Source: a virus
DNA length: 64,000 nucleotides
Reading direction: 5' to 3' (one strand)
Virus record (IMG/VR): IMGVR_UViG_3300045988_076504
Coordinates: 36,080 to 100,079 of that record
Shown: positions 14,592 to 61,569 of the stretch, one piece after another
Layout: every line of letters begins with the position of its first letter
Position numbering within the stretch: the first letter of the stretch is position 1
Notes under the pieces: generated by a model
Databases searched by the model: none
What the model was told of the DNA's origin: nothing
The model's input: the letters and a program-made list of their open reading frames with translations, nothing else
Position numbers and translations under genes: made by a program

Positions 14592-16642
14592 CAAATTATA
14601 AATATATAAAGAATCAAAAACCGAGATATGGCGATGGCAAGTGGGATTGGAATGATTGGTATAATGATACGAAAGGTATTATATCTTTTAATCAACCGAG
14701 CGGAAATAAACATCTAACATGGGGTAACGTACCTGGTCTTGAGAGTGTTATTCGAAGCGATATACAAACAGCTAGTCCAAATCAATTAAATAATATGGTT
14801 AACAAACCAGAACATTCGGAAATAAAACCAGGTTCTGAAAACGGAGGTTCATCTAAAGGCGTATCATCAACAGGATTATCTTGGGATCCTACATCAGCAT
14901 TAATGTCTACAGCTAATTTTGTTGGTGATGTGTTTAGCGCATATAATAGACCTGTTGCAAACGCATCCGAACTTGCTTCTCAAGCTGGTACATCTTATGG
15001 AAATGTAGGAGGAGTACAATATCAAAGACAGAATGCTGTTGACGTTGATCAGGCTGTATAGAATGCTAAAGAATAGGGGAACCAAGGAACAATGTCAACA
15101 GCTATGAGTGGTTTAAGTGCAGGAGCTGCTATAGGTTCTATAGGCGGACCACTCGGCGCAGGAATAGGTGCTGTTGTTGGAGGACTTGGTGGACTTTTAT
15201 TTGGAAATAGCGCAAAACGTAGAGCTATGAAACGAGCACAACGTCAAGGTGAATTAGCACAAAGAATGGCTGTAAATACTAATATATTTAACAGAGCACA
15301 AGCTCAGTCAGATTTGATGAAACAGCAATATATGTAGAAATACGGAAATACTCAAGGTGGTATACTGTATGCTAATAAAGGAAAAGATATACCGATGTAT
15401 AATAGTGGTAAAGATAAAGTATGGTCTCCTGACGGATATGTTTCTGGATTACACAATTCTTATGTAGGTAAAGGCGAAGTGATAGCCAACTTTAGCAGCG
15501 GCAAAGCTTCTGTAATCACAAAAGGTAAGGTTGGAGTTGATAATCAGAAATCATCGGTTAGTGAAAATGACGATAATGTAATACTCGGCAATGATGTTGA
15601 TTTTACAACAGGAAGGACATTCGCAGAACAAGGTAGACCATATGCAGACAAATTACATTTCATAAACCAATCTGAAAAGAAGGTTGGAAAATACGGGAAA
15701 TTGAGTTCTTTGAGTAAGAATACTCAAGATCTTTATAACAAACAAATAGGTTCTACTAAACAACAATTACTTGATGGTTTGAAAGATATTTCAGATAGAC
15801 AAGCAGAACAACATAATTATGAGAACAACATGAAACAATATGCACATTTTGCGAATGGCAAATCTTCTGTATTCTATAATAAATGGTTACCATATATGCA
15901 AATGGCAGTACCTAGTCTAACAGGTATTGCTGATGGAATCGGTAGATACATAAACGCTAACAAATAGAATATTGAAAATAGTGATACGTATTATAGAAAT
16001 CCGTATGCACAACGTGCTCTACAAGGTCTTGCAGGACTAAGATATGATGTAGATCCGGAGTTAAGACAATATGTGAATCAACAAGCTTATAATAAGTATG
16101 CAATAGATCAGCAAGGTGGTTTGACAGCTGGGCAGAAATATATAGCGAAGAATAGCTTGTATAATGATTATATAAATAATGTAGCTAAATTGTATGCAAA
16201 CGCTAACAATATAAATAATCAATACAAGGCACAGTATTATGATCAGCTTATGAAAGCTGGAGAAGCTGAAAGATCTGCTTTGACTGCAGCTAGACGTTAC
16301 GATGCTGATATTTATGCTAAAGCTAGAGCTGCACAACTTAATATGGCAAATCAAGCACGTAAGGATGCACTTGAAAATCTTTATAGAATGGATAAGAGAT
16401 TTGCAGATTATAAGATGTGGAAAGACACAAATAGGATTTACGAGCAGGATGTGGCTAATAAGAAACAAGATGTGCAAAATAGTTTTGATATAGCTAAAGA
16501 AACTGCTGCAAGTAATGAAAGAATCGCAAGAATGATGAATAATTCCAATCGTGTCGTTACAAATCCTATGTTTTATAGATTTACGCCAAGTAGTCTTTTT
16601 GATCAGTTAAACTTTAATTATTCAAATTTCACGAAACGATGA
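14582..16642 (+). CDS. Internal/ejected (cargo-type) protein with a Gly-zipper TM segment (686 aa, 5 TAG; codon 2 is TAG)
   Basis: It starts ATG TAG at 14582-14587, inside an ATGTAGTTAA overlap with the upstream stop. It joins track ORFs 14795, 15092, 15395 and 16073 (frame 2). It contains GLSAGAAIGSIGGPLGAGIGAVVGGLGGLLFG. The stop is TGA 16640-16642. Confidence 0.7.
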
Positions 16643-18363
16643 TATATAGATATGACCAACCTGTAGATATGCCAATTCCAGAACTGTATGATACCGGTTT
16701 AATGTAGGCATACACACAGGCGATAAGAGAGCAATTTGAAAAAGGAGAAAAGCGTTTAGATGAGTTTGCATCAAAGTATGGAAACTTCACATCTCCTTTT
16801 GCTAAAGATATACAAGATTGGGACAGATTGACAATGGGTCGAATAAATAATATTTATAATGACCTTGTATCCAGAGGCATAGATCCATTGCGTAGCAGAG
16901 AAGGTTAGATGCTAATGGCATAGGCTATTAGACAAACACCTGTTGGTAAATTAAATCAATTAAGGCAGTCTGCTGCAATAGGTGAACAATATCTCAAAGC
17001 CAAAGGAGATTTACAAGCGAAGGGTTTGTATAGCCAGGAGATGGAAGATTACTTTTTAAAACATCCTTTTAGTCAATGGAGTACTTCTGAAAACGGATTG
17101 TTTAATAGAACATCTCCTTTGCAATATAAGGATATACATGATATCACTGATGATTGGTTTAAGCATTCTGAGAAAAAATTTGATGAGAAATTAACAAAGC
17201 AGAAAGCGGACGGTTATGATTATTATACCGTTTCTGAAGATGATATACATGGTATTATAAACAGTAATATTAATGACTTTCTGGATAGCGATTACGGTCG
17301 TTATTATTATTAGAAAGAAAAGAATTTGGTTTAGCGTCTAAATCCTACAGCCACACAAGATTAGATAGAAAATATGGCGATGTAGAAGTTCAGAGAAGAT
17401 ATTGTCAATAGAAACAGTGATTATCTAAGAAACGAACGTAAAGTCAACGAATATGCTAAATTGGATTATGAGGATAAACTCGAACGTAGTAGAAAAGAGT
17501 GGGAGTGGGCAAACAAACCGTCTGGAAAATCTGGCGGTCCTCAGGAAACATAGAACTATCATCAGAACATGTTGTTAAACGGTTTGTATAATTTATCAGG
17601 CAATACAGATTTTCTTGATCCTGGTGTTTCAAGCAAAACCAAAACAACTATTGCATCTAAAGCTATTTCTTATTTGAAAGACGCTGTAAAAGGGTTTGAT
17701 ACAAATCCAAAGGAGAGACTAAAACAGATAATAAAATACACAACAATATAGGGGTCTGAAGAAAAACCTTCTTTTATAGGCGAGAAATTTAACCATAAAG
17801 CAGGAAAGTCGTATGGTAATTGGATGATCGGAAACAAAAAGGTCGAAGGCTTGACATTATCTCAAAACGAATTGAACACTTTAATCAGTGATATAAATTG
17901 GGGTGCGATGACAGTAAACAGTAATATTAAACAGTCACATGCGTTACATAACAACATAGCAAACCTTTCCAAAAAAACTATTTCATACGAAGTTACTGAT
18001 AAAAATAATAAATCAAAGAAAGTAACAAAAACAAAACCTAAATACAGATTTATTCTTATTCCGGATACATACAACAATGTCGCAACAACAATAGATAAAA
18101 ACGGAGCTGCTGTACAAGCTAATCGTGGAACGCTGTATGCTGTAAATACAGATGATAACTCAAAACAAATAAATCTCGGTAAAACATTCATACCGTTTAA
18201 TAAAACAGATCCTGTGACTACAGATGGAAAAGCTAAAACTAACGAAATTACAACAGCATCCGGATATAGAACAAGAACAGATCAACAAGAAAATAGTGTA
18301 CGTAAAGTATTAGGTATGAAAAATACCGATAAGGGTGCTAATACGGGAGATTATGATTATTGA
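16639..18363 (+). CDS. Internal/ejected protein of unknown function (574 aa, ~9 TAG)
   Basis: It has an ATGA overlap with the upstream stop. It joins track ORFs 17026, 17569 and 17824 (frame 1). The stop is TGA 18361-18363. Confidence 0.7.
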
Positions 18364-18365: not shown

Positions 18366-21300
18366 ATGGGAGATATTAGAAAATTAAGAGCCATCTCCGC
18401 AAATGTGAGACGGCAAGAAGAATATCAGCAGCGATTGAGGAATGAAGAGCGTGAGAAAAAACGCAAAGAAGAACTTCTTCGTCAACGTGAAAAGGAATAT
18501 TAGGAAGCTTTAAAAAAGAGAAAACAGGCTGAAGAAGCCGACGCACTTATACGAAAACATAAGGAGGAAAATAATTATAAGCCTGTTGATTCTCTAATAA
18601 CAAAATCCGAAGAGCCTCAAAAACAAGATTCTGCCGATATAATAAGACCTGTAACTAAACCTCAACCGAGTATATATAAAAGTCCTTTTAGAGAAGATAC
18701 AATATTTGGAGCAGATGGTAAATTAAACAAGTACGATTGGACAAAGTCTGAAAAGGCTATGAAATATACTCCAATGGTACAAAAAATGGTAGATAAATAT
18801 AAGCAGGATGAGAGTGACAAGCGTTTGAGATATGCCACAACTCCTGCTCGTATTGCTAACATGATGGCAGATCAAGCTGATTTGGAAGAAGCTCTTGCAG
18901 CGATGGGTGCTCAAAATGATGCGAATACCATGGCAATGAAAGAGGAGCTTAAAAAGATCAAAAACGACATTCAAAAGGAAGTAGATTGGTATACTGCAAC
19001 AACACCTCGTAGTAATTAGAGTGATATTAGAACAGATAGTTCGCGACTTATTTCTTATTTTGATGCTGGTGGTATAGGAGAAGCTTCTGTAGATATAAAT
19101 CATGCGTTAAAACAGCAACAACAAGCTAAAAAGCTCGGTCTTATTAATGACGGTCAGTCTTTGCTGGCTGACGCGTATCACACGTTCATGATTTCTAAAA
19201 ACGAAGTTCAACGACAAACATCACAAGGTAAAATTAATACTCTATAGCAACAGTTAAATATGGCGAACCCTCAGGGTCTGGACGAGTATCAAGACATATG
19301 TGAACAATATATACAATTAAATCAATGGTTGAACAGTGTTAAAAGAAGATATACTAGCGGACAAGGAATTACACCAGAAGAGAAAAGACAATGGGATCCT
19401 GTACAGAAAAAGATCAACGAGTTAAATAGCAAGAAAGAACAATATGAAAATATGTTTAATAATCTTGCTACTTTTGAAAATCAAACAACTGTTGGAGATT
19501 GGGTGTCAAATTCACAAAAATACTTAAACAAACTCAATTTGGATTTTGGTACTGGTGTTGGAGGATCTTTGAAAGGATATGGTGAAAATATAACCGGTTT
19601 TTAGAAAGCATTGGCCAATAGAGATCAAAAAGCTGTAAATTTTTATAAAAACAAGTTAAAAGGTATATTTAAGAATTTCTCTGCAAAAGGTGAAGAAATG
19701 AAAAAACTTTGGTAGAGAGATTATGATATAGATACTGCAGATTTAAATCGTTGGACATCGGACTACAAAGTATCTGAATATTTCAAACAAAAAGAACAAG
19801 AAGCTAATGATTTAGCATGGTATAATCCTAAAAAACTATGGATGGCTCCGTCTTTGTTAGGATCGTCTATGTCTTCTCCGGAAAAAACATTAATGTCCGT
19901 GGGAGCCGGATTGATAGCTCTCATGGGTTCGATATTAGCTCCTGAGACAGGAGGTGCTTCTATAGCACTTACAGCAGGAGCCGTATCATTCTTAAGCAGT
20001 ATGGCAGCAGGAGCTGATGAGAACTTTGCAAATGTCGCAGATGCTACAAACGAAATAGCCAAGAAAGATTTAGCTAAAAAAGGTCAGATGGATAAATTTT
20101 TAGCTGATGCCAGACAAGTTCTTGGTTATAATACAACAGAAGAGGACGCGTTACAAGCATTTTATCTCGGCAAATATGTTCCGAATGACTTTAAGATACG
20201 TCAGACTTTGTTAGATGCTACGGCAGGTTCTGCAAAGCAGTATTATCAAGGTATGGGTGTAAATACATGGGATTCTCTTGTAGATGCTATTGTTACATGT
20301 ATGCCTACTGGTGGTATTGCAAAAGGATCTAAAGTTGGGTTCTTAACAGATAAAATCGCAAGTAAAGCGGATAGAAAGTTGTTGAAAGCTCAGCTTTCTA
20401 AATATATGAAAGCAAACAATGTATCTCTCAAAGAAGCTATCAAGGCTTTCAATGAAAGCGGTGCTAGTAGAACAACAATATAGAACGCCATAAATGATTT
20501 ACGACAAGCTGTCAATGCTCCTGCTAATTATCTAAGAACGCTATCTAAAGACGTTGTAGAGAAAATGGGACTCCCTGTATTGCAACAAAAAGCAAATGCG
20601 TTGTTAGACAAAGGTCTCGCTAAAATGGCAGAAAGATCTTTAAGACATACAGCTAATGTTACAGACATGCTTGCAGCTGTTCCAGAAAGAGTTTTGAAGT
20701 ATAGAAAAAACTTAAGACTTGCTGGTAAACTAGCAAAAGATCTAGGATGGCGTACAGCAGCGTCTATGTATTCTGAAGGTGCAGAAGAAGGTATTCAGCA
20801 ATTGCAACAATATCAACGTATGGAAGAAAGGTCGAATGCGTATTTCAATGTATTAGAACAACTTCCTCTTACGATAATTGATGGAGCTAAATTATGGAGT
20901 ACGTTCTTATTTAAGAATCCAGAGAACCTTACAGCGCAAGAAAGAGATATAGTACAACAGATGCATGGTGGTATATTGGGAGCTTTGTTACAAGGTGGAC
21001 CGATGATTGCAGCACAAGGAGTTGGTGGTACGTATAAGCAATACAAGCTTGATCAGATTATAATGAATAACCTTTTAGCAGACAATATAGCAACAAATGA
21101 CTATCTTGATAAAGCTAGGATTTTGTCGCAAGAGCTTGGAAAAGGGAATTATAAGAACATTATAGAAACTCTGAATCAATACGATGAGTTAACTACAAAT
21201 ATGCGAAATCGTCATAAAGACGATCCTAATTGGGCGCTTCCTCAAAATCATATAAGCAATCTCCATAAACTTTTAAATGTTGTTGCAAATTTGCAACAAA

Positions 21301-24300
21301 ACGAAGAGGTTAAAAAAATAAAGAATTCTATTTTTAATTATGAAGATGATACGAAAGGCGTTATAAGAAAAACCGCAAAAGGTATATGGGATAATACATT
21401 TAATAGAAAAGATGCAAAACGCAGAAGCCAACTTAGAGACGATTATAATACATATATAGGTATCTTAGCAACGAGGTTGAACGAGATAAATGATTCCAAA
21501 CAGTTCTTGGACGAAAAGACAAGAGATCTTATTTCTGCAAGATTTAATCAAGGTACATTTGAAGACTATGTGAACAACAATCAAGCTAATCCTCTTGTAG
21601 CGGAACTATCTACAAAAATTGAAAAAGATGAACACGGATATCATTTGGCTGACGCATATAAAGATAACCAAGATCTACAAGAGAAGTTTAAATTGCTACA
21701 AGAAAATTATTAGACTCACAATTCGAATGCAGAAGTACTCCATAGTCTTATAGGTTAGATGCAGACGATGCAGCTTTTACAAGACATGGAGAAGATTAAA
21801 CAACTCCCAGGAGGAACCACACTGTCATCTAGAGCTAAGTTTGAAGTTGATCGTACTAAAAAACGACTTCGTGAGTTACATGGCGATAATATAAAGCTTG
21901 ATACAGAAGAAGATGTTAAGAACTTTGCAGCATCACAAGGCTATAATATAGACGACGATTATGTGGATGCATTAAGACAGGTATCTGATGCTAGAATGCA
22001 AGTGAACTTCAATACGGAAATGTTCAACAGGCTCATTACAAATACGAAAGACGCTGTAAAAGCTGTCAAATCATTTAAAGAGAATCGTAAAGCCGATGAG
22101 GAGTTAAGATAGAGTATTGAAGATGATTTCTACAACAATGAAATAGATCGTCAAAAGTTCGAAGCGTCGGAAATAAACGATGATAACAATACATTTACAA
22201 AAGACGGTAAAACGTATGTTGTACGTGATGATTCTGATGGTGTACGTAGAGTATACGAATACGACTCTGAAAACGACAAGCTTGTTCCTACAAATAAATA
22301 GTTCAATAAACGAGAGTGGTACGATAGTAGATAGTAGTTTGATGCTGAAACAGCAGACCATGAAAAACTCAGAGCTAAATATGACGATTATAAAAGCTTG
22401 CTCGATAAAGATGTAAATGATCTGACGGATCAAGAGAAAGAAAGACTTGAAACATACAAAGGTATGTTAGATAAGTTTAATCGTTTTGATGATTCTGAGC
22501 AAGCAAGAAATAAGTATTTAGAAGATGCTTCTAAGACTCCAGGATTAAAAACAGATTATACAGAAACCTTTAGAAATTTATCAGAGTACGCTAGCGAAAA
22601 AGGATATACTCAAGATCAATTTGATAGCCTTGTAAACGAATTAGCAAAAACATCAAACGATGGTTATAGAACCAGAGAATAGAAAATACGCAAATGGGTT
22701 GAAGATGGTAGAGATGTCGAATATTCTTATACAGGAGATTCTTATTTTATTGGAAGCGATCATGTGTCAAAAGAAGCTTATGATTATGCTAAATGGTTGC
22801 AAAAACGTAACGAAAATCAAGATGACGTTGTAGAAGATGACGAAGTTTTGGTAGAGCCTCCAATTGTTCCAGAGACTCGACCAGAAGATGAAGATAACTA
22901 GAGAAAAGCTTATCAAAAGCCAGAAACTACGTTTACGCATAATGGAAAGCCTATCACCTTGCAACAAGCTTAGGTTTTAACACAACTGCAGCCGTATCTA
23001 GCATCTGATGAAAAATATCATTATGAATGGCGTACTAGTGAAAACTATTTTATAGAAGAGAATGGTAAAATTGTAATGTACAATCGTCTACATAGTTTGT
23101 TAGATCCGTATATTGCAGATGAGCCAGAAAAAACAGAATCTATAAAAGAAAATACAAGAATATTACAAGCCGCAAGAGACAAATGGAAAACCGCTATTGA
23201 CAATAACGAATCTTCTGACCGAATTAAAGAGTTAAGAAAAGAGTATGTTTCATTAATCGAACAAATGCGTGACGATTATAACGAAATAGTTATGCTCAAA
23301 TATAGTCAGAATGAATCAGATGTTAAAAGATTCTATTTAAATTTTGATGGATATTTTCAAAATGACGACATTCTTATAAGCGATGATGCTGTAAACGCAA
23401 TGGCTACCATGCTTGCTCGTAAAGATAACAATTTGTTCGAAGTTGGATCTACCACAGTATCTGGTACAATTGTAGACGAAATAGCAAGATCTGTATTCGC
23501 ACATTCTCGTGTGGACAATATTCCAAGATTTAAAATGAGCGATGAAACATTTTCTAAACTCGTTAAAGATCTAGAGAAAGAAAGAGATCGCTGGGAATCA
23601 CTTGGTTATACTATTGTAACAGAAGGATTGTGTTTCCATGGTGAAATCCAAGACAAAGATGGTAATATAGTCCGAGTTGCTGGAGAAACAGACATGTTAG
23701 CAATAGCTCCAGACGGGTCTATTACAATCGTAGATTATAAAACGTCTAAGAAATCATGGGAAACTAAACAACGTCCTACAGGTGTACAAAGTACCGAAAG
23801 TGTTATAGACGCATTGGATTGGCAATATAGCAAACGCTATGCTTTTGGTAAACGACAACGTTCTACAGCAAGAGTATTCTATACAAATCAATTGAACGCA
23901 TACAGGCAAATGATAACAAACTGTACTGGATTGTCTGTTGCAAATCTTCAACTGATGGGATTTTAGACAGATATTGAAGAAAGTAATGATAGAATATTGT
24001 TAAACAAAATAAAATCTATTAGCGAACCTACAATTGTAGATATTGCTGTATTAGATCCTGTATTGAGTGAACATTCTTATATAGAACAACGTAGTGTAAT
24101 AGAAGAAAGAATAAAGGAAACTAAAGAGCGTACAAAAACCGCATTTAAAGAATATACCGATAAGTTTGCTGCTGTTGGAGAATTGATGCAAGACGTTCAA
24201 GATCCTAAATTACAAGCTTTGTATAAATATGCGAAAGAACAGATTGATAAGATTGGAGACATTGATCAGATCAACGACTTGGACAGATTAAACTAGCTTT

Positions 24301-27300
24301 ATAATTGGATCAATAATAGCATGTCCAGTTTACGTAATTTGGAAGCGGAAGCTCAACAAGCATTGAATGCTCAATCAGAAGATGCGTCTAGAAACGAAGG
24401 TGTTACACCTAACAGCAAAAAATTCAATGCTCCACACAGAGTGTATAGTGATGAAGAGTTGAAACATTATAATCACACAGCACAGGATCCTAAATTCTTA
24501 AACGCCCAATAGAAGAAAGAATTACAAACGTTCAAAGATTGGACAACACGACCAGATTTCGCATAGAATGTTCAGTTTGAAATAGATTTCGATGCGTCCG
24601 GGTTTATACATGGAGTACCTACAGCGGGTACCAGATTAAAATTCAAATCTATAAGTTATAACGGTGTTAAATTATCACCATCCGTTGTGCAGAATATTTC
24701 ATTTATGTGGTCTGTTGATCAAGACGCATCATCATTACGCCAGCGTCTTATACAATGTTTTAATGACAATTATGACGATATCAAATCTGGCAAAAAGAAA
24801 ATCATATTAAAGAACGTACAAAGAACAAACGGTAAATTACTATTCGGTGATACTTCTAAAAATGTACAAGAAGCGTTGGAATTGTCAGACGAACAAGTTT
24901 CAAATTTGTTAAATTATGATAGCGATGCTGTACTATTAATATCGGATAGTGCTGGTATTGTACGTAGATTGGATAGTGAAGATAAGAAAGCCGGGTCTGG
25001 AACCGCTGAGCGTATTTCTAAAAAAGAAGAAAATAGAAACCGTCCTGGTATTGTATACATACAAAAGTAGCTGCATTATGCTGAAGATGAAGGATCTGGA
25101 AATAAACCACACACAGCTTTAATTCCGCTCACGCCTGCTAAAATGTCATCTGGTGCAGTAGATCTCATAATAGATATTCTTACAAACACCGGTAAATCCA
25201 AAAATATGTCTGCAAAAGACAACAACGGAAATTCAATACCGGGACCTATAAATAGATCATTACTGTTACACTACTTAATCCGTTTTGGAGGTGGTGCTGA
25301 AGCTATGATGAATAGTTTCCAATTCAATTATGAAAGTAATGGTCAAAACGGTTTGGACTACAGTAAAGTATTCATAAGTACAGATAGAGGTTAGACAAAA
25401 ACAACTTATAACTTAAAAGACATACAAGATGTATAGAAATTAAGAGAGTGGTTGTTAAATAATGCATATTTGAATGTACAAAATATATCTTTGATTCGAG
25501 ATAATGTAGCAACATCTAAGGACGGTATTTTTGCAGGAGTAAAAGAATGGTTTGATAATCATCCTGATGTAGAATCTATATCATACTCTGACGAATTTGT
25601 AATAACGAGAGATGATGTAAATTCTAATATCGGAGGAATACAATGGATGATTAAAAACAACTGGTTGCAATCTCAGTATACTGGTATTACGGACGCTATT
25701 GTATCTGCTAATGATTTTGACATAATAGATCAAGTTCAAAACGCTCCAGAAAATATTTAGAAACAGCAAGATGATTTTGATCGAGCTGTGGAAGAGCAAC
25801 TAGGACCGATTCCGGACGGTGTAAACGATAACAACGATCAAAACACAACAAACGATGCTCCGATCTCTTTTGATGACTGTGATAACGCTTGGGGAAACAT
25901 AATAGATCCTAGCGCGACACTATTCATGAGAAACCCAGAACATCCAAAACGACCGATAACAGAAAAACGTCAAATGGACAAAGCTATTCAAGATGTCAAA
26001 AGGATGTGTGGAGATACAGTTCTCATAGAAACGTTGGACAGTGTTCAAATGGCTGAAAGATTTGGAGATGCTGTTGGAGCATGTACTCAAGCAAGTATTG
26101 TGTTATCGTACGGTGCGGAAAACGGAGTTCAATACCACGAAGCATTTCACAGAGTTGTAGAATTAGCAATGCCAAAAGATGAGCGAGACAAATTGTATAA
26201 TCTGTACAAGACTAAATACGCTAAGAATACAAACCTTAAAGATAAGGATGTTGCTGAAGATTTAGCCGATATGTATTTTGATTACAGTAAGAATGTATGG
26301 CACCCGAGAAATAAGTTGTTTGCAAAACTATTCTCGAAAATATATAATTATATAAATGCTTTATTGACAACAAAAAGTTTTAAATTTGCAGCAACGTTTG
26401 TTAGAATTGATTACGGTAAATATGCTAAGAATGAAATAACAAAAGAAAATCAAGACCGTTTTACAAAAGAATTCCACAATGTACTGAAAATGACATTGAA
26501 AGATTCTACTGGTAAGGAGCATGTATTTAATAATGTATATACACAAACACAACTAAAAGACGCTGTTGATGTATTGTTACCTTTAATAATCAAATCTCAA
26601 GGTATCGATATTCTTGGTTCTAACGCAGATACTCTAAAAACAGATAAAAAATCTTTGCTTGCAGAAGGTTCTAAATTCGCACAAATATATAGACAGTTAA
26701 CGTGTGGTGATGCTACTGAATTATAGTTAAATCAAGCTGTTGCGGAAGGTAAGTTGTCTCCACTAACAAGAAATAATGCATTAGCTTTACGAGAAGTGTT
26801 TGACAACTGGTCTCTTGTACAACCGATGTTGGAAGACAAATTACGTGCCGTCGGACTTCGTTCGAAACTTGGAGATGTCAATCAGATAAGTGCAGATGTA
26901 ACTAGTCATACAGACGATGCCTTTTATTCTCATTCTATGAGTGACGATATAGGTTCTGCGATGCTTTATTTACTTAGTACTATACCAAATCAAAGGTATG
27001 TTACACAAGAAGATGTGGCTTCTGGCTTAGCTAAAAACATGTATGCTACAGATAAAAATGGAAATATTATAATGGAGAATGGTAAACCGAAACGCGCTAC
27101 TATTCCAGCAATACGTAATAGTTTCGGAATGACTTCGTATCTTCCATTTAAAGCTGTACACCAAAGAATGTTAACAGAATTGCACGATGTAAAAGATGTT
27201 CGTGATTTGGTAGAAAAACTTAAGAAGTTAGGAGAAGTAGATTACTTATTTAACACTCTTGCACAGTATCTCGAAAGATTTAGATACTTGTCATATATAA

Positions 27301-30300
27301 GGTTTTCAGATAAAGAGAAATTTGGCGAATATGTAGGATTCCCTGTCGTGATGTATAAAAACGCAATAGTCGATCCGTCATATTATATTGCAGATACATC
27401 TATTCGTAATGAAGATACAATGTATCCTAAACAAATACGCCTCGTTAAGGATTTAAAGGACAAAAAGGGCAATCTCATATGTAAGGCTGGTGATATATTA
27501 CAAGGAGCTGCTATATTGTAGGATCAAGATAAACAAACATTAACAACGTTGTTTTATCAGTCTATAAAATCACAGAAGATGAATTTCAACTTCTTCAACA
27601 TTAGAAATTCTAAAGGTGAGAATGGAAGATATGAATATTCATATTAGCCTACAAATACAGACAGATCAATATCTCAGTTGCCTATAGGGTGGTTTGATAA
27701 TATTAGAATAGGTCTTACAGGTTTGTATAACAAAGATGGTTCTGTTAATAAGTCTAACAAATCATTTGAAACGACAAGGCAATTCTTGATGTCCATAAGA
27801 AACCAGCTTATTAATAATTCTGGATAGGTATAGATTGGTGATAAGATATATAAAATGAGCGACGCCGCTGATTTCGATCATGTTGTTTCTGCTACTGTAC
27901 AATCTTTAAATAATGTTGGCATAATGGTAAATAAAGCAACATGGTACAACATGTTGCATCGATTAAATCCGAACGAAACCGATTACACAATATCGTTTAG
28001 AGAGATCATGACAGCAAGTAACGAAAAAGGTCTTAGTATCGCGCCATTTATAGAAAAAGGTGGAGTATTAGATAAATTACAAAAAGCTGTTGATTCTGGC
28101 GATTTGAATATGTTTACACAAGACGTTGCACAAACTGGAAAGAGAGGTGGTTATTCTGGAGCATATTTATACGCTAGAAATAATTTTGTTAGAAGACTTG
28201 CTGAAGAAACCGGTGTATATCGGTCAGCAACATCTGAAATAATGACAATTGGAGCAGGAGATACTAAATTGTATATGTATGCTCAAAACAATACCGCATC
28301 TGATGTTACTGACGATTTGAATTCATCTCTTAACGAAGACGGTACGGTTAGAGAAGGATCTATTTTGAGCGATATGTAGAATGTAGAATATGTAGTTTAT
28401 CATGACGACCGTGGCGGTATACATGGATCTGTAATAGCAAAGGCTTTATTAGATCCTAATTTTAATAGAAATCATAACAGACTCGAAGTTATTACAGAAG
28501 CCGGTTCTAAACAAAGATTTGGACCAAGAGATAGCGTAAAGTTTGCAGAAATGGAAAAACGAACAGATTATCTTTCTCGTATTCAAAAAATAACAGACGG
28601 TCTTATCATATTCCCAACATTGTCTGATAAATCCACATATATGACAATAAAAGGTTTTGATAAACAGTACAGACTTCCAGGATTTAATTACGACTAGAAT
28701 ATTACAGAAACAAGTTCTACTGCAGATTTAAATAATTTCGGGAAACTTCCGTTCATAAATAAAAACAACGGTGCTCTTATATTTGATGCTGCTGATAAAT
28801 ACAACAATTATTCTCAAAACGAAGTGATCGACCAGTTTATAGAGTATTATGAAGCAGAACATCGTAATGTGTTAAAAACGTTAAATGAACTTGGATTTGG
28901 TCCGGACAAAAGTAAAAAATTACCTAAAGAATAGCTGGTTAAGAACTATCATACCGGTAGTATGAACGGTGCGAGATATACTTCTATTTCTGGAATATAT
29001 GATGAAAATGGTAATTTTATATCATTTAATTTTAAAACCGATTCCGAAGATAAAGGTGTTATTGAATGCAACAAGATTGCAGAAACAGAATTCTTTAGTA
29101 AGCCGATAGAAGAAAAAAGAGCGATTGTTGCTAGAATATTAAAACACAGACTTGATGACGAATTACGCGGTTTGGTTGATGCCGGAATTATACAAAAGCA
29201 AAATAATGACAATTCTTCTCGGAAGAATGCAGATTATAATAATTATAAAAACGTGTTTTTATCGAATAGTGTGATAACACAACTAAAATAGGCGTATTCG
29301 TTAAATGAAAACTTTAAGAAAGCTGCGCCTGGATCATTAAATACTGAAAGTTTAGCTGTAGTAGCGTATGTATACGATATTATGTGTAAACATCTGATGT
29401 GTATAGAAGAAACACGTAGATTCTATACAGGTATGCCCCAGTTCTTTAAAACAAGTTTCGGAGAAGATGGTCGTTTAACTGTTTTTGGAAATGATGAAAC
29501 AAAACGTTACGGTGGTGTCGGATCTACTGGTGTAAACAATAGAGAAGATATTCCGGGAATGAACGATGATTATCGTGTAGCTGAAATAAATGATTGGGAA
29601 ACACCGTCTCCGGTTTTAGATTCTTTAGGAACGTTGTTTAAGATTGGAGAATATAGAGAGGCAGTCGCTAATATAAGATTGCGAGAGCTTGGAGAAAATG
29701 CAAACGAAATTTAGAAATATGCTTTGTATGATTCTGTAAATTAGATGGACGAAGATGCAATGCGAGAAGTACTAGATGAAGCAGGCGTATTAAAAATGCT
29801 GGATAAAAAGATAGAAAAAGAAGCAAAGGCTTTCTCTAATGTGAATGTAGCTGATGGTACGGCATTCATTAGTGACAAGATGTGCGAAAATCTTTTGAAA
29901 CAGCGTGGCGCATTTACAAAAGCTGTTGAAAATGCATTTAAAATACTGCGTAGTGATTCTGACGATTATCTGAAATTGTCCCAGTCATATAAAATTATAC
30001 ACAACGCTATGATCTCTACATAGAAATATTCAGCGTTTGGTTATAGAATGGAGAATGGTACACCTGTACATTATTATAATAAATATGCATTATTTCCGGT
30101 CTTTAAAGGAATATCGTACGGCTTTATGAAGAATCTGTATGAAAAAATGAATGACGCTGAGAATGGAGTAGATGTTGTATTGTTTACATCTGCTGTTAAA
30201 GCAGGATCTCGTGGAGCACAGCGTTTTGATCCGAACATATCTCAAGAAGAAATTAAAAATTTCTCGTTTAAGGGTCATATATATAAGTAGAAATACAAAC

Positions 30301-31157
30301 ATATGCGTAGACAGTTGAACACTGATCCTAGAACAGACGAAATAATGTCTGCTGGTACACAGGCGTTAAAAGTTGTATTATCTACATTACGAGACGGATA
30401 GACATACAATATACTTGGACCAGACGGTTAGATACACGAAGCCACATCTTCCGAAGTTAGAGATCGTGTAATGGAATTACTCAATAAGATTGCTGATTCA
30501 GGGTGGAATAAGTTGTAGGATCAATTCTTCACAAACGGCAACCTTGATTATTCAAAACTACAAGACTTCTTAATTCATGAGTTACTTGGAAGAGATGCTG
30601 ATCAAAATATACTCGATGCTTTGTAGCTCAATGAAAACAAAGATGGCTTCATAGTAGATTTAAATAGTGTTTCTAACATGACTTGGGTTGAAAGTATTTT
30701 GACGTCCAAAGTAAACAAAGATGTTATTGATTTACAACTTAAGGGAAACGCATTCTATCAGAGATCTGTATTTGGTATGGATAGTCCTTATATCGCAATG
30801 AGCGACGATGAAGTGTCCAACGAAATAAATGGAGGAAAACCATTACAAATGATCAATGAAGAAGGTAGTATGGATGCTGTGGTATCTATAGATTATTTTA
30901 TGGATATTATTCCAAAAGAATACAAATACAATTTTAATAAAGCTAAGCAGTGGCTTATAGATAATGGTATTATATCCGGTGTAAAAACTGGAGAAATAGC
31001 ATGGAGCAATGCAGAAGCAAACACCATGTCGTATCGTATTCCTACACAGGCTGCATCTTCAATCGGCGCATTACGATTTGTAGATGTGTTACCTATTGTC
31101 AGAGACACTATTGTACTGCCTAAAGAATTTACAGCTTAGACTGGTTCTGACTTCGAT
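18366..31157 (+). CDS. Exon 1 of the giant virion RNA polymerase polyprotein (4,264 codons, ~41 TAG)
   Basis: Twenty-one track ORFs from 18759 to 30678 are all in frame 0, and every gap contains only TAG. The exon ends ...TGSDFD at 31157. It contains a RecB-like nuclease motif set (GETDMLAI / IVDYKTSK / QLNAYRQM) and HEAFH at 26135-26149. Confidence 0.8.
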
Positions 31158-32083
31158 AAACATCAATGTCGAAATAAAAGTATGTGAATTGCTGGGAAAT
31201 CCCTATGGGACAATCAGCAGCCTAGCCCTACGAAAGGGAAGGTTCAACGACTAATAGTATATTATATAATAATTCCTCATAAATTGAAGAAAGAAATGAA
31301 AAAGATTTTAAAAAATAGATTAAATGAAAATGGTAGAAATCTCCTAATTGCCGCTGCACTTGGAGATGGATGTATAAGTAAACAAGGATAGATGTTAATA
31401 AATCATTCTTGGAAGCAATACGAATATTGTAAATGGAAACGAGAACTTTTAAAAAAGAACGGAATAAAAGTAGGTGTTTTACAACGTTTTGAAGGTTCAA
31501 ATGGATATTTAAAACACACAATACAATATAGATTTTGCATTGGTATTACACCATTTAACAAAGTTCTAAGACGTATTATGTACAATGAACACGGTAAACA
31601 TTATTCTCGTAAATTATTAAACAGACTAAGTCAACAAGGTCTTGCCTTGTGGTTTATGGACGACGGTGCAATATTACGTAGAAAATATAAAGGTAAATAT
31701 TGCGGGTTCTATTTAAGAATATCTACATATTGTACATCACAAGAAGCTGATGATATTATTAAATATTTTGTTGAAGAATGGGATATACACCCTACCAAAG
31801 TACATGAAAATAAAATAAAACATTATGATGCTTATACTATCAATTTTGGAGCAAAAGAAGGTAAGAAGTTAATAGATATAATTAAGCCTTATATGTGTCC
31901 AAGTATGATGTATAAAGTGTTATATGATATCGAAGAATTAAAATCTTATTATGATATACAAGATGTGAGGGAAGTTCTCACAGAAAGTACATTAGAGTCT
32001 GATAGACTACTAATGGAAGCGCATACTACATCGAAAGATGTAAAGATATAGTCTAATCTTCGTAGCAATACGAAGTATAAATG
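31158..32083 (+). mobile_element. Group I intron (926 nt) carrying a homing endonuclease gene
   Basis: P1: exon ttcgat(31152-57) pairs with gtcgaa(31168-73), with a U.G pair at the splice site. P10: caat(31164-67) pairs with exon-2 attg(32084-87). The last intron nucleotide is G. The core-like string is aaggttcaacgacta, and gacta pairs with tagtc at 32049-53. A hairpin cttcgta-gcaa-tacgaag lies at 32058-32075. Removal shifts frame 0 to frame 2 and restores GSDFD-IDKLY. Confidence 0.85.
31296..32051 (+). CDS. LAGLIDADG homing endonuclease with two motifs, encoded in the intron (251 aa to TAG 32049-51; one internal TAG at 31389-91)
   Basis: The motifs are LLIAAALGDGC and GLALWFMDDGA. ATG 31296 is in frame with track ORF 31392..32051 through TAG. 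If the terminal TAG is also read through, the ORF ends at TGA 32082-84. Confidence 0.85.
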
Positions 32084-35000
32084 ATTGATAAGTTATATAT
32101 GTCTACACTTCATTATGATGTAGAGTCTGTTGACAACGATTATATCGATAAAAAAGGATAGATACACAGAAGAAAGACATATAACGCTAAATCTTACAAT
32201 TTATCAGATGTTACAAACAATAACACAAACGAGTTGTTGCGCATATATTTGTCTTTGTTAAAAGATACCGGATAGTACAAAGATGGAAAGATTGTAGGTG
32301 GAAGATACGGACACGTATTAAGAAGATCTATTGATAGTGATACGGATTTGATAAAAGAGGTTCTTTCAGAAATAGAAAGTAGTATAGAACAAAAAGCATA
32401 CGAACCGTATCAATTTGAAAGTATGTCGTTTTAGGTTAATACCAGATCTGCATTTGCAACCGGTAAAACTGGTATCGGACCATTTGCGCTGAATAACAAC
32501 AGTCAAATTCTTACACAAATATATGGCATCAAGTTTATAAACGATGGTGGTATATTAAGTTCTTTCGGAGCTTTATCATTAGATAGGACTTCGGACGTTG
32601 ATGGAAAATCTATATTATCTTGGATTTCTGGTATGATTAATGCTCACGTAGACGTTGCGAAAGACCCGTATATATTGAGATTAAATATCAATAAAGACAC
32701 ATATAATCTTGCAGCATTGTTATTACGTTTAGGATTTGGAAGACACGCTCTTTATTTCTTAAACAATCCTGTAATGAGAGAGCTTTCTGCTATACGAAAT
32801 GAGCAGGACGGATAGATTGTAAACGACCCTGGAAAAACTCCAACACAGCGTAAAGAAAAAGCTGAGAATGAATACATTAAAGATGTATTCGGTAGTAATA
32901 GTGTGGCATTCTCATACGTAAATGCAAAACCAGATGAAAAAGATGATATTGCTAAACGAGCTTTTAAAACGATTGTACAGATATTTGGAAATCCTTTTAA
33001 AGAACATAAAGATACTACAATATTACAAAGTATTTGTTAGAGTTTGTATGGAGAAAATGGTGAGAAAAAGGTAACAGATCTGTCAAAGGACAAGATATAT
33101 AAGTTGGAAGATGGTACAAAATTATCACCATTTGAAGTTCAACAATATGTATATATAGCATCTAAAGAATTTGAATCTTACGCTTAGGGTTTGTCAGACT
33201 TAGTACAATATACTAAAATCGACACAAAGAAACAAGGTATAAATTATACAGAACAGTAGAAGTATTTGCAAGGTTATGAGAAACTTTACAATAGCGGAAT
33301 GTTTAATTCAAATCTGAAACAATTGTTGAACGATTCTTATATACATACAAAAACAATATACGGTACTTCATTCTTACCTAGAGTATTAGGCGGACAAATG
33401 ATCCATATGTCATATCAATTCCAAGCTGAAACAGAATCGATTTTGGATAAAATTAACAACCATTCTAAAAATTCTAGAGAAGCTGTACAAAAAGCAATGC
33501 TGTGTTATATTAAACAAAAAGCTTTCAATAAGGCGTTTAAAGATTATGTTGATAAATATAACGAGCAAAATAATACAGACTACACAATAGAGAAATATTG
33601 GGAACATTTAATAAAAGGAAACGATACTTTATCTAATCGTATTTAGAAGCTACAGAGATGGATATAGGCTGATAATAAAGGACTGCTAAAAGAATTCGGT
33701 TAGAATGGTGTTATAACAAATGCGATACTTAAGAACTTATATCCGGTACCGTACATATCTCAATATGGGCAAGATCACTTTGATATTATCACTTTAGGAA
33801 ATAATAGCGAAGATGAAAAATCTATAAGTAATGATTATATATATTCATGGGAACAGATGTTAAATTATACAAATAGTGAACGTCTGGGATTACAGAAATA
33901 TATTAGAGATTTAGCTAACGATCTTGCTATATACGCATTTATGACATCTGCAGACAGTAAAGGATTTACAAAATTCTTTAAATACGCGCCACTTCAATGG
34001 AGAAAAGAGTTTGGATATTGTGATAATATTGCGGAAGCAAACAAAGAATATCAAGAAGGTGGTCTCACATTAACTACAGACAATGTTAGCGAATACGGTA
34101 TCGATTTCGATGATTTTATATAGAATTTCTATTACGACAACAATATATTACCGGAAACGTCTTTAACTGATCGTAATGGTCGCCAACAAATGGTTACTTC
34201 AGCATTTACATATAACACTCTTGACGAATACGGTAATCCTACATTACGTACAGAACCTAAAAATATAATAGGTCTTAACATGCGTGGTAATAAATATGCA
34301 CAAAGTATTAGTAAAAACAAAGACGGATACTTCCCAGAATATATAAAAACACGTAGAAACGGAACACGATATAACGATAACGATCAATTCCTATTGTATA
34401 AACTCGTAGATGTCGGAATTGTAAAGAATGGAAATGTCGAATTAGAATATCCAATATATCAAATTATAAACGCCAAAGGTTTACAAATGCAAATTGGTTC
34501 ACAAACATATCAATTCTATTCTTGTGGAATGAATGATAATTACGAGCGTTCTCAATTTACCACGAAAGATAAATCTGGAAATAGGGTAAAGCCAACCATG
34601 GAGCAAGTGCAAGAGTCTTATAATAACCGCAAAGCTGCTTTATAGAAATACATCAATGAGAATAATTATTCTATACTTGATGCGGTTAAGAAAGCAGGAC
34701 TCGTTAGTAAGAATGATATATTTGGAGGACAGTTATCTAGTATACAAGAAGCGGCATATAGCGGTATAGGTTCAAATAAGAATACTGTGAATGTTAACTT
34801 CGGAGCAAGCGATAATCCACATTTGTCTAATTTTGCAAAACGTCCTATTTCTGATATATTTGACGTAGTTGAAAGTTTTATTAATTCTCCAGAGTTTTAT
34901 AAAATAAAATCTACGGTTAAACATAAGGCAGACACTGTAGAAAATGCGTTCTAGGCGTTAAAAGTGTTGTATTCTGATTTGAATGATAATGATAAGGTGG

Positions 35001-35386
35001 TTAAATTTAATCATATTATATCACTACCGTCTGCAAAACAAGCTAGAGCGGAAGGTAGATCGTTACCTATTAGTAGTACAAAACTTAAAATGTGGGACGA
35101 TATAAGTACTGATGTATTACAGTCTTTGATGAGGGCTTCTTTTGAGCAGAATGAAGACGCAGCGCAAGCATTGGTTGATACTGGTGATAAAATAATAACA
35201 CATGATAACGCAAAAGGTGAATCTTTAGATGATAGATTTGCTCCAGCATTGACTCAGATACGCCAAGAGTTAATAGATGGAGGACATGCTCCAAACACTG
35301 TAAAACAACAATAGTCTTTGAAAGATTATCCCGCTAACGAGGCTCTTGATGAATTAGCAGATCAAATAGACGAACAATGTAAATAA
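32084..35386 (+). CDS. Exon 2 of the giant virion RNAP polyprotein (1,100 aa, ~14 TAG), with a NADAR/DUF1768-like C-terminal domain
   Basis: Frame 2 is open from the splice site and joins track ORFs 32633, 33266, 33857, 34190 and 34964. The true stop is TAA 35384-35386. The C-terminus reads HLSNF ... ENAFQALK ... MWDD ... ASFEQNEDAAQALVDTGDKIITH. Confidence 0.8.
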
Positions 35387-35395
35387 CAAATCATT

Positions 35396-38300
35396 ATGGT
35401 ATGTTTAATTAAAAGTAAATATAAAGAAGAATTAGATTTATACACATAGTTGCTAGGCTCTGAAAAACGAGCCTACGCGATTTTGTGTTGTAATAACGGA
35501 TATACTCTAGACAAGACTAAAGATGGAAAACCATCTAAATTGTATAATGATTTGTTAGAGTATTATAAAGGAGATGTAACAAAAGCTGTGCAAAAGAAAG
35601 CATAGCTTTTTACATCTGAATTTACAAAAGATTACGGTCAATGGTACCAAGACGGATATGAAATATCTGACGAATATAAAGATGTATTTGATGAGAATGG
35701 AGAACCGCTGCTTAACGGCACACATTTTGGTACAGCAGATAATAAGATATTACTCGGCGGGCAGAAAAAATTTGCATCAATAGAAGAGGAGGAACAATAT
35801 ATATTAGAGCACGCTACACGTGATGAAAATGGAAAACTATTGGCACCTAATGGCAAACCTTCAAATCTTACAGAAAAACAATACGCTCAAGTGAGAACTA
35901 AAGCCTTTAAAGAGTGGTTTGGTGATTGGGAGAATGATCCAGAGAGTGCTTCTAAGGTAATAGATGAAAATGGAGAACCTTTGGTTGTTTATCATAATAC
36001 ACCATTTAAATTCAATGGTATATTTGATATGGATCATGTTTCAAGAATTATGCCGTAGATGTCAGAGCCATTTGGTCATGTAAGGACTAAAGAAACCGCC
36101 AATACTATAAAAGGTTCACAATACGCTCTTTTCCTCAATTTAAAAAATCCATTAGAAACTCCTGATTTTGTCCACGAATCTGTAAGTTCCATGTTATCCG
36201 AGCTGTATAAACAAGGTATCATTTCTAGAGAAAAATATTCTTCTCTCAGAGGAATATCTAATTCAGAATTAAGAAATTTGATGCTTTCTTTGGGATATGA
36301 TGGTACAAAATATGAAAATAAAGCAGAAAGAGGCGGGATTTCTTATAGTTTTATAACACCTAATCAAATTAAATCAGCAACAGACAACGTAGGTACATTC
36401 TCTAAAACTAACGATAATATATACAAAAGACGTGGTGAAAAGAGAGACAACCATATGTACAACAGGGAGCGTGCTGTAAAATATATTAAGGATCAAGGAT
36501 ACACAATAGACAATCTGGTTCATGACACATATGAGACAAGATTTGAAGTCACATTAAAAGCTAAAACTAAAGAAGACGTTTGGAGATCGTATATAAAGAA
36601 TATGGATCCTGCGTTAAAGGTTAAATATGCAGGAGTACGTATTGGTAAGAAAGACCCTAGACTTGAAGTTTAGATTAAAACCAAAGAAAGTGAGTCACTA
36701 ACTAATCTAAATCAGTTTCTTGATAAAAAATCTTTAAATACTGCGCAAGATCTTTTACAATATATTATAAAACAAACTAAAGACGAGAATAATCAGAATT
36801 TTTCTTTCATCCGTGCTGTATTAAAAGATATTAATAAAACTGTTCCCGAATTATTTAGTAATATCAATGTCAAAGTAATTGCCGATAACAATGGTAATTA
36901 TTCTGCGAAATATGACAATAATACAAAAACTATAATTATAAATAGTGCAAGATCGTTCGGCAACGAAAATAATTTCAACGATGAGTTAATACAGACATTG
37001 ACTCATGAAATGATACATGCTGTTACGGTGGAAGCGTTATAGAGATCTAAACAATTGCGTGAAAGAGCTGAAAGATTATTATCAGAGCTCAAAAAACAAT
37101 TTAACAATGATCCAGATATTCAAGGTATACAGGATGTGTACGAAATGGTTGCCGAATTAAGTAACGATGAATTTATCAAAAAATTGTAGTAGATACAATA
37201 TTCTACTGATGAAACATGGTTTGATAAGATAAGAAGATTTATATCTACTGTTATTCGTCACTATCTACGTAAAATAGGGCTACAATATAAAAATACCGCA
37301 TATTCAGAACTCGCTAATATTTTTGTACAATCTGCGTACGGTAAGAAAACCGGTTTATAGATGTCTGAAAACATAGATGAAAAGACGGTTTTTAATAGAA
37401 ACTCTAAAAAACGCATACAAGAAGCTAAAAAGAAAGTAAAAGCTAAACTGAAGGAAGGTATACATATTGTCGGAACACGTGATTCTACATAGAAGCTTAT
37501 AGACAAGTTGTCGCAGGATATAATATTAGGAACACGTAGTAAAAATAAAGCATATTCTTCTAAAAGAAACAGTAGTGTATCTTACGGAAATGAAAGGTAG
37601 ATTGCCAGAAACCAAGAAGCTGTAAATTTTGTAGACGAGCAAGCTAAAACTATAAACGAAGCTATAGCTGAGCGTGATGCAGAAAAACAATTAACCGAAC
37701 AAGCAAAACTTATACTCGATTTTATAGATCACGCTGATTCTGATATAAATGAAGTACTACAAATGCTTAAAAACGCATAGGATAACGACTACGATTTAAT
37801 ATATTATAATGTCGACCAATTTGGAAATAGATTGTATCAAGATCCGTCTGGCAATTCTATAACAGCTCAAACTGCAGGAAATAATACTATAGCCAAGTAG
37901 TTTTCATTCGATGATATACAATATATGACAACCGATATTTTAGGTTATTATCAAAAACTTCTAAGCGACATTGACAATATGTTATTGTAGGTACCAGTTG
38001 GCAAAAATGCAATTGTTGATGAAATTCGCGATCTTATGCAATCATTAAGACTACACGATCAACTTCGAGCTGCATCTAATATGAAACGACAAGCGCAAGA
38101 GAAAATGCTTGATTTTTATATAGATCAACGTATAAATCAACAAGAATCATCAGAACTTACTGATGAAATGAAACAGAGGTTGTCTATCAACATGAAAAAA
38201 TGGGTAAAATCCCAATATGATTTTGGAGATGTTGGAAGTTTCGCTGTATGGACGCAACTCATATCTGATTCAAAAAGTCCTATTGTGAGAATGATGGCAG

Positions 38301-61090: not shown

Positions 61091-61569
61091 CTCAAACGAT
61101 TTCATTTTGTACTATGATGAATTGATCAGACCCATCATAGTTGTGTACATGTTAAATACTACAATCGTACATCAATTGGAATCATAAGATCAGCTGCTCT
61201 TAATCTCTCCGTATGACGTACAATTATAGTATTATATTAGTACATAAATATCTTAGTTGCAATAATGTCATGGTTCCAAGACTCTTAGACGTTGCAAACG
61301 TTAACACTTTGACAGTACATTTGGATGCTTTTAGTTCAACCGAACCTACTCACATACGACTCGATGGTTCACAAATGTTAATTGTTGATCTAGTGACCAT
61401 AGTTTATTCTCCCTGGTTGAGAGTTCTTTTCCCGCTGGCTCTAGGCTCTTTAAGCGTCAATGTCAATTCATCAATATTTCACCCATACTTTAACCGCATC
61501 GCGCCTTACAAAAGTCCAATGGGTATATAAAGTGACTGATTCGAGATTCTGCACTTTGGAAATAGTGGT

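Follow-up and report, generated by a model that had tools for sequence, protein, structure and literature searches.

The 64,000-nucleotide (nt) stretch of viral DNA analyzed here (positions 36,080 to 100,079 of IMG/VR record IMGVR_UViG_3300045988_076504; hereafter the window) contains a spliced phage gene of 5,364 codons in which TAG is read as sense. Exon 1 (18366-31157) and exon 2 (32084-35386) are separated by a 926-nt insert, which is a group I intron with a LAGLIDADG endonuclease lying within the codons of the catalytic DFDID loop of a crAss-like virion RNA polymerase. All coordinates and counts of an earlier note, made from the DNA letters alone, were reproduced, namely one spliced gene in a single frame with the intron boundaries exactly as given above, about 55 TAG codons and one TAA at 35384-86. 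The gene structure, the anatomy of the intron, the homologies and the domain identities described below were all established in the present analysis.

The explanation that fits these results best, and in which we have high confidence, is that of a late "transcription block" gene of a Suoliviridae-like (delta-group) crAss-like phage, which is split by an intron, recoded at TAG and encodes a fused protein of three parts. The primary transcript would carry the mobile group I intron within the catalytic Asp loop codons, and the intron would excise itself through its P1 and P10 guide pairings and its terminal G, restoring DFDID and shifting the frame into exon 2. The resulting 16.1-kb mRNA would then be translated with its 55 UAG codons decoded as sense, most probably as Gln, to give a 5,364-amino acid (aa) protein. 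This protein would consist of (i) approximately 2,780 aa resembling the crAss001 cargo protein gp47, with a hydrophobic hairpin, a PD-(D/E)xK nuclease and a zincin-like HExxH...E domain, (ii) a two-barrel virion RNA polymerase of approximately 2,300 aa resembling crAss001 gp50 and phi14:2 gp66, and (iii) a C-terminal NADAR domain. Like its counterparts in phi14:2 and crAss001, for which alone packaging and early transcription are known, it would be packed in the capsid, be ejected with the DNA and transcribe the early genes; its virion packaging and the roles of its accessory domains are predictions.

Gene structure and the reading of TAG

The gene lies on the + strand and is made up as follows:

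18366..31157, + strand: exon 1 (aa 1-4264), encoding the N-terminal gp47-like portion plus the first half of the polymerase and ending in ...TGSDFD
31158..32083, + strand: group I intron, predicted to be self-splicing (926 nt), between the second and third Asp codons of the catalytic DFDID
32084..35386, + strand: exon 2 (aa 4265-5364 plus TAA), the rest of the catalytic loop, the bridge-helix/trigger-loop region, the C-terminal part of the polymerase and NADAR

Exon 1 (12,792 nt; 4,264 codons) contains 41 in-frame TAG codons and zero TAA or TGA, compared to approximately 253 TAA plus TGA expected in this number of codons from the regional base composition (probability of zero, approximately 1e-110). 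The other two frames of the same stretch contain 197 and 410 TAA or TGA codons. Exon 2 (3,303 nt; 1,100 codons) contains 14 TAG codons and a sole TAA, the terminal one, bringing the spliced gene to a total of 55 in-frame TAG codons. The start codon at 18366 is the first in-frame ATG and lies 2 nt past the TGA of the upstream gene. When the exons were joined in silico, the junction read GACTTCGAT followed by ATTGATAAG, that is, ...TAQTGSDFD continuing into IDKLYMSTL..., and DFDID was present only in the joined sequence. Unspliced, exon 1 continues for 9 codons (KHQCRNKSM) and then meets a TGA. Exon 1 was collinear with cr130_1 gp79 and cr118_1 gp14.

From position 1 to approximately 42,100, the long frames of the + strand are open only when TAG is read through, whereas the open reading frames (ORFs) of the - strand from 42,192 on contain zero in-frame TAG, or one in a few cases. 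Moreover, the GC skew flips at approximately 42 kb. Together these features indicate a division into late and early genes with TAG recoding of the late genes, as described for many crAss-like phages and documented for this phage group (PMC7886860). The in-frame TAG codons are confined to the late genes and align with sense residues, as in genetic code 15. Homology to orthologues runs unbroken across the TAG positions of the giant gene, and the residue aligned to TAG was most commonly Q, followed by K; at position 3975, it was Q in all five homologues. Gln is the most probable amino acid at UAG, here as well as in the phage's other late genes. The cr118_1 orthologue is a 4,946-codon ORF with zero TAG in the standard code, and the giant frame is therefore not a read-through artifact.

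If TAG were instead a true stop, the locus would be a series of approximately 56 short ORFs or a decayed pseudogene, as reported by standard-code gene callers. The ENA record of a relative with 90% identity is annotated in this way, with dozens of genes of 60-400 aa, and a tRNA(CUA) suppressor was not found in the 64-kb window, outside of which lies about one-third of the approximately 98-kb genome. We regard this reading as practically untenable, since it is effectively refuted by the TAG-free orthologue, by the orthologue alignments that run straight across the TAG positions and by the count of zero TAA or TGA codons; it is also opposed by the recoding known from the phage group.

A tRNA-like gene was found at 45452-45523 on the - strand (Rfam tRNA, 36.6 bits), which ARAGORN called only at relaxed settings, as "tRNA-?(Asn|Stop)(atta)". 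Its anticodon loop has 8 nt (CUAUUAAG). It is not a CUA suppressor; it may be a decayed gene, or else a tRNA that reads UAA or is of the frameshift type.

A group I intron in the codons of the catalytic loop

Two elements of the insert bear on its excision and mobility:

31152..31173, + strand: P1/P10 guide region, read directly from the sequence
31296..32084, + strand: LAGLIDADG homing endonuclease ORF (262 aa), between intron P3' and P7' (P8 region)

The Rfam model RF00028 (Intron_gpI) matched the insert twice, at 31177-31263 (P3-P7; model positions 47-158; 43.1 bits, E 2e-9) and at 32041-32073 (P7'-P9; model positions 219-251; 23.5 bits, E 0.0015). The two matches are collinear, with the endonuclease ORF between them, and sum to 66.6 bits. 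P1 is formed by the exon sequence TTCGAT (31152-57) and the intron sequence GTCGAA (31168-73), and its pair at the 5' splice site is U·G. P10 is a perfect helix of 6 base pairs between the intron sequence ATCAAT (31162-67) and ATTGAT (32084-89), the hexamer with which exon 2 begins. The last base of the intron, G 32083, is the omega-G. The endonuclease matched Pfam LAGLIDADG_2 with an E value of 1.9e-18 (67.4 bits; cut-off 25), contains both LAGLIDADG motifs (LLIAAALGDG and LALWFMDDG) and is homologous to the endonuclease in the cr131_1 intron. Its ORF carries two in-frame TAG codons (31389-91 and 32049-51), and thus the endonuclease too depends on read-through. These findings identify the insert as a group I intron, for which self-splicing activity is predicted from the conserved elements.

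A 98-kb ENA contig of 90% nt identity (ERZ28576889 BRIT20-1 scaffold_131, hereafter L010; the relative mentioned above) lacks the intron precisely, the equivalents of window positions 31157/8 and 32084 being contiguous. It reads GGTTCTGACTTCGATATTGATAAA, which encodes GSDFDIDK, and GSDFDIDKL is uninterrupted. An intein was also considered as an identity for the insert and was rejected because a TGA lies 9 codons into it, exon 2 is in another frame and an RNA core is present.

Homologous introns were found in the same 15-nt DFDID-coding motif of other phages, in three codon registers. The intron follows GSD in cr131_1 (L004; intron at 16376-17286), in the relatives L015, L032 and L038 and in many truncated database proteins; it follows GSDF in L018 and L025, and GSDFD in the present phage and L064. 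Thus cr131_1, which carries a homologous intron in the same motif, is interrupted between GSD and FDID, whereas the present gene is interrupted between GSDFD and ID. The guides were read out in cr131_1, L015 and L025, and each of them can pair with the exon sequence at its own insertion site (GGUUCGGAU/GUUCGAACC in cr131_1 and GACUUU/GGAGUC in L025, for instance). Covariation was also seen in helices P5 and P9 of the homologous introns. Guides that match their registers, together with this covariation, argue that splicing is under selection.

As an observation on the wider distribution of the intron, the exact P4-P6-P7 core string AATTGCTGGGAA...AATCAGCAGCC...GGTTCAACGACTAA was present in 54 IMG/VR viral contigs of 4-170 kb, only 8 of which have the intron in the polymerase site. 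This indicates that the same intron family occurs in many other phage genes.

In addition to the suppressor tRNA missing from the window and the weak or absent matches given below for two of the accessory domains, the following points weigh against the explanation proposed here. Because the core is interrupted by the endonuclease ORF, neither RF00028 match (43.1 and 23.5 bits) reaches the gathering score, 50, by itself. Splicing and full-length translation of the product are both deduced from sequence. Finally, the last three intron bases are an AUG that reads in frame into exon 2 and shares bases with the TGA of the endonuclease (ATGA), so that exon 2 could be translated separately from unspliced RNA.

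This last point leads to a reading in which splicing is inefficient and the gene is expressed in pieces. The exon 1 product would end in ...GSDFD plus KHQCRNKSM, the endonuclease would be made separately, and exon 2 would start at AUG 32081 by coupling to the endonuclease stop, giving a split polymerase. An in-frame terminal AUG was found at every 3' intron end recovered, namely those of cr131_1, L015 and L038 (after GSD), L025 (after GSDF) and the window; the endonuclease stop adjoins the AUG (TAA-ATG) elsewhere, in place of the overlap seen here. In RefSeq, moreover, the cr131_1 pieces are three separate coding sequences (CDSs). We consider expression in pieces to be very unlikely. It would place two catalytic Asp residues on one chain and the third on another, the intron-less alleles are continuous, the catalytic core, P1, P10 and omega-G are all retained, and the guide co-varies with the exon in three registers, implying selection for splicing.

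Group I introns with homing endonucleases are found in catalytic-site codons of essential phage genes, as in T4 td, nrdB and nrdD. The present intron resembles these in carrying its endonuclease ORF in a peripheral loop, in its insertion at the most conserved codons and in the occurrence of intron-plus and intron-minus alleles in near-identical genomes. In contrast to the T4-type introns, its endonuclease needs TAG read-through, and the same 15-nt motif is occupied in three registers.

Parts of the encoded protein

The following parts of the product were delimited:

19884..20015, + strand: Gly/Ala-rich hydrophobic pair (aa 507-550; Kyte-Doolittle scan), in the gp47-like part
23424..23963, + strand: RecB/Cas4-like PD-(D/E)xK nuclease (aa 1687-1866), with GETD (D1776), DYK (1790-92) and QLNAY (1842-46)
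25941..26390, + strand: zincin-like HExxH...E domain, putative metallopeptidase (aa ~2526-2675), with HEAFH at 26136-26150 and E2631, the candidate third zinc ligand, at 26256-58
29673..31157, + strand: two-barrel RNA polymerase core, exon-1 part (~aa 3770-4264; approximate coordinates), aligning with phi14:2 gp66 ~946-1363
32084..33241, + strand: polymerase core, exon-2 part (~aa 4265-4650), aligning with gp66 1364-1717
34784..35281, + strand: C-terminal NADAR (aa ~5165-5330), with LSNF, vENAFQALK, W, SFEQN and TG..ITH

For the polymerase, a core profile was built from this phage, three Suoliviridae and four metagenomic proteins (profile A1). It matched chain A of PDB 6VR4, which is phi14:2 gp66, with an E value of 1.1e-58 over gp66 residues 946-1265 and 1331-1717, so that the homology extends over barrel 1, the connector, barrel 2, the bridge helix and the trigger-loop region. 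A single-sequence phmmer search of 3,264 aa against the PDB gave zero matches, 6VR4 being found only by the family profile. BLAST matched aa 3795-4499 to crAss001 gp50 (4e-14). After splicing, DFDID, the metal-binding loop of the second double-psi beta-barrel, occupies aa 4262-4266 and aligns with residues 1361-1365 (DFDID) of gp66; the segments aligned with gp66 include TGSDFDIDK, GK.G.G (GKSGVG), INA.VD.AKDPYI and LNAFVDNAKDPYI. In gp66, for which the landmarks are published (10.1101/2020.03.07.982082), GK.G.G and INA.VD.AKDPYI map to the bridge helix and trigger loop or close to them. Both blocks that the earlier note had pointed to downstream of the catalytic loop are present in exon 2, GKTGIGPFALNN at 32462-32497, before the bridge helix, and INAHVDVAKDPYI at 32636-32674, in the trigger-loop region. 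Judged from these alignments, the polymerase is a crAss-like two-barrel virion RNA polymerase of the phi14:2 gp66 / crAss001 gp50 family, and the homology that the note had expected around the DFDID site was thus found.

Toward the N-terminus, aa 1699-1943 and 2560-2647 matched crAss001 gp47 (1714-1943 and 2126-2212, respectively) by BLAST. The crAss001 matches are collinear, gp47 first and then gp50, and the two are separate genes in crAss001, which indicates that the giant gene is a fusion of the two. It consists of a gp47-like and a gp50-like cargo protein that meet near aa 2780, followed by a C-terminal tail that is variable. What the note had called extra enzymatic modules fused in cis to a polymerase is better described as this cargo fusion with a tail. 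Both gp47 and gp50 of crAss001 were identified as virion cargo by mass spectrometry (PMC10172136).

The nuclease label was borne out. A 180-aa segment matched Pfam PDDEXK_1 with 26.9 bits (cut-off 22), 17 of 18 family members also matched, and the D, DxK, Y, Q and Y residues, including the QxxxY motif, are invariant. Within a block conserved with cr130_1 (aa 279-667), the hydrophobic pair at aa 507-550 could be a membrane-inserting hairpin of the kind expected for an ejection protein.

In the HExxH...E domain, H2591, E2592, H2595 and E2631 were invariant in 21 diverse sequences with a mean identity of 27%, the Glu being located 36 residues past HExxH. An AlphaFold2 model made with 11 sequences had a pLDDT of 58.3 overall and of 60-84 over residues 1-150, and showed a helix, a beta-sheet, the HExxH helix and the Glu helix, a succession of elements that matches a zincin; a model made with 5 sequences was poor (pLDDT 39.6). 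As a point against the assignment, the domain had no significant match in Pfam, NCBIfam, the PDB or Foldseek. The best Foldseek E value was 0.31, and the zinc peptidases MATCAP, DPP3 and M32 appeared only among the non-significant matches. The N4-type peptidase family (MPTase) was not detected in the giant protein. The domain is thus probably, though not provenly, a metallopeptidase; the label is plausible from the invariant residues, and a match to a fold or family was not obtained.

The NADAR copy of the window alone scored under the Pfam cut-off (32.4 bits compared to 35.1; E 1.4e-7), and as a single sequence against the PDB it gave an E value of 0.52. The latter result was superseded by a family profile of the window copy and 10 relatives, which matched YbiA (2B3W) with an E value of 8.5e-15 and 8BAU with 2.9e-13, confirming the module as a YbiA-fold domain and thus a putative ADP-ribose N-glycosidase/hydrolase. 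Aligned homologues scored 57-58 bits in Pfam. Throughout the family, neither the E of vE.AFQ..K nor the H of ..ITH varies. In PHROGs, the sole match was an unnamed family on the NADAR region. Of the four functional labels given to the protein in the note, the three for polymerase, nuclease and NADAR were right.

The presence of a putative peptidase raises the question of whether the product is a polyprotein, in which the zincin-like domain would cleave the 5,364-aa chain that contains it, either in the capsid or after ejection. Such cleavage would free the gp47-like protein, the polymerase and possibly the NADAR tail. The domain lies approximately 100-250 aa upstream of the junction near aa 2780, is invariant in its HExxH...E residues across the family and is always N-terminal to the polymerase, and the parts it would separate are separate proteins in crAss001. 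The same autoprocessing was proposed for the polyvalent proteins containing N4-like virion RNA polymerases (Iyer et al. 2017, PMC5512222). On the other side, the models and searches above did not confirm the fold of the peptidase, and crAss001 gp47 retains the same domain with no fusion to resolve, so that the domain must have another role. We consider self-cleavage possible but rather doubtful, and prefer to describe the product as a fused protein.

Compared to crAss001 gp50 (2,412 aa) and phi14:2 gp66 (2,180 aa; PDB 6VR4), the present polymerase belongs to the same family, with DFDID, bridge helix and trigger loop aligning, and crAss001 gp47 (2,341 aa) has the PDDEXK and HExxH regions in the same order. 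All of these proteins are, or are expected to be, virion cargo. In contrast, gp47 and gp50 of crAss001 are separate genes on opposite strands, whereas here they correspond to one reading frame, and crAss001 and phi14:2 are without the intron, the TAG recoding and the NADAR tail.

In N4-like phages, the polyvalent proteins that contain the virion RNA polymerase nearly always carry a fused zincin-like peptidase, and fusion to variable effector domains is likewise described (Iyer et al. 2017, PMC5512222). These proteins, and the P23-45 virion RNA polymerase fused to a tape measure protein (5,002 aa), resemble the present protein as giant virion-delivered polymerases, encoded by late genes and fused to a zincin-type peptidase and effectors. 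The shared logic would be delivery of the first transcription enzyme and accessory activities along with the DNA. The N4 polymerase differs in being T7-like and single-subunit rather than two-barrel, and the likeness is one of functional analogy, not membership.

Relatives, tail variability and annotation

The nearest annotated genomes are Suoliviridae (cr130_1, cr124_1, cr118_1, cr131_1 and others). Their giant genes are likewise located after three cargo/structural genes and before a gene for approximately 2,000 aa and the strand switch, contain PDDEXK, HExxH, the two-barrel polymerase and a variable tail in collinear order, and are TAG-recoded in most cases. The gene order was the same in six of them (cr130_1, cr118_1, cr113_1, cr60_1, cr7_1 and cr131_1). 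The polymerase core is only 31-44% identical, which indicates a distinct lineage here. A megablast search of the locus against GenBank phages gave zero matches, and the named genomes are related to it at the protein level only. Orthologues in these genomes are as follows:

cr130_1 gp79 (YP_010113266): 5,801 aa, 74 TAG, single CDS in RefSeq
cr7_1 gp32: 5,443 aa, single CDS in RefSeq
cr118_1 gp14: 4,946 aa, no TAG, single CDS in RefSeq
cr60_1: 4,494 aa, single CDS in RefSeq
cr113_1: 4,328 aa, single CDS in RefSeq
cr131_1 gp50 + gp48: 4,372 + 1,401 aa, split by the LAGLIDADG intron

The earlier note had taken the size of the protein, about twice that of published polymerases, to be exceptional. 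This was refuted by the single-CDS orthologues of 4,328-5,801 aa. Polymerase genes of crAss-like phages of up to approximately 6,000 aa were described as a hallmark of the group (PMC10136315), and Yutin et al. (2021; PMC7886860) reported giant multidomain proteins, in-frame stops, PDDEXK domains and an intron-encoded LAGLIDADG endonuclease in the transcription block. Giant genes of this kind are thus already described for gut crAss-like phages, and the claim of novelty fails.

Relatives were collected by an exhaustive HMMER search with the HExxH segment, which gave 286 representative clusters; among the top 150, approximately 100 have a length of 3,000 aa or more. At least 58 representatives of 3,940-6,939 aa have an uninterrupted GSDFDxD, with HExxH in all those checked, and share the architecture of the present protein. 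Approximately 22 representatives end inside the catalytic motif, most of them running on into translated intron sequence. A word-indexed protein search gave very few matches, presumably because the recoded genes are shredded in the database.

The tail following the polymerase was variable. At the 3' end of its giant gene, the 90%-identical L010 has approximately 2.2 kb more than the window (L010 18175-20381 compared to window 35271-35315), including DUF1848 (Pfam E 1e-24); the scaffold has runs of N, making frame continuity uncertain and the length of its "6,061-codon" ORF unreliable. The tail of L010 thus comprises NADAR, DUF1848 and more, whereas that of the window comprises NADAR only. In contrast to the present gene, the tail of cr130_1 consists of NADAR, DUF7831 and additional sequence that is unassigned, and that of cr118_1 contains an SF1 helicase. 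The tails of other relatives are helicase/NADAR/DUF1848 or helicase/DUF7831/NADAR mosaics. The difference between L010 and the window points to an exchange of tail modules at the strain level.

The variability of the tail suggests, and does not show, a swappable counter-defense cassette delivered by the virion. If so, the zincin would release pieces of the tail, and an enzyme that removes ADP-ribose from DNA would enter the cell with the DNA that it protects. In vitro, phage NADARs strip ADP-ribose from the guanine bases of DNA; that of T4 gave no rescue from DarT1 in vivo (PMC11125620). A second reading, drawn from the three codon registers and the terminal AUG that is always in frame, is that the catalytic-site intron would act as a gate, active polymerase being made only from spliced late mRNA. 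Taken jointly, the two readings are speculative and, in our estimation, unlikely.

What is modestly new here is the precise description of the gp47-like/gp50-like fusion, a model of the intron that is exact to the base and accompanied by an intron-less allele, the occupation of DFDID in three registers with matching guides and an in-frame terminal AUG, and the variability of the tail past the polymerase. These results do not overturn current understanding. They define, with its boundaries resolved, a mobile intron in the active site of an infection-starting enzyme, with plus and minus alleles at 90% identity. Moreover, near-identical strains that differ in the tail following the polymerase offer a testable lead for virion-delivered anti-defense activities in the most abundant human gut phages.

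The practical value lies in annotation. With standard-code calling, the 17-kb locus becomes dozens of hypothetical genes (more than 30 short ORFs in the ENA record of L010). RefSeq names of orthologues are misleading, including "DprA-like DNA recombination-mediator protein", "exonuclease V", "DNA helicase" and "nuclear pore complex protein-like protein" (NC_055901, NC_055872, NC_055896, NC_055891 and NC_055899). The correct model reads TAG as sense, removes the group I intron and describes a gp47-like part, a gp50-like part and a tail.

Upstream of the giant gene, a 1,741-aa ORF matched crAss001 gp44. In the early-gene region, a match to Rfam tmRNA_permuted was found at 60874-61104 on the - strand (57.5 bits, gathering score 47; E 1.5e-8), with no ARAGORN call; the possible tag ends in ...THVA before UAA. 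Directly after the TAA of the giant gene and in the same frame, an ORF at 35387-42136 on the + strand encodes 2,246 aa from ATG 35396, with 26 TAG codons. Read-through of the TAA at 35384-86 into this ORF was considered and rejected, because the ORF has its own ATG at 35396 and because, in cr130_1 and cr118_1, the gene that follows uses a different frame or overlaps; the common frame seen here appears to be a coincidence. BLAST of the product to crAss001 gp49 was negative, and a strong hydrophobic segment is present near aa 2050-2072.

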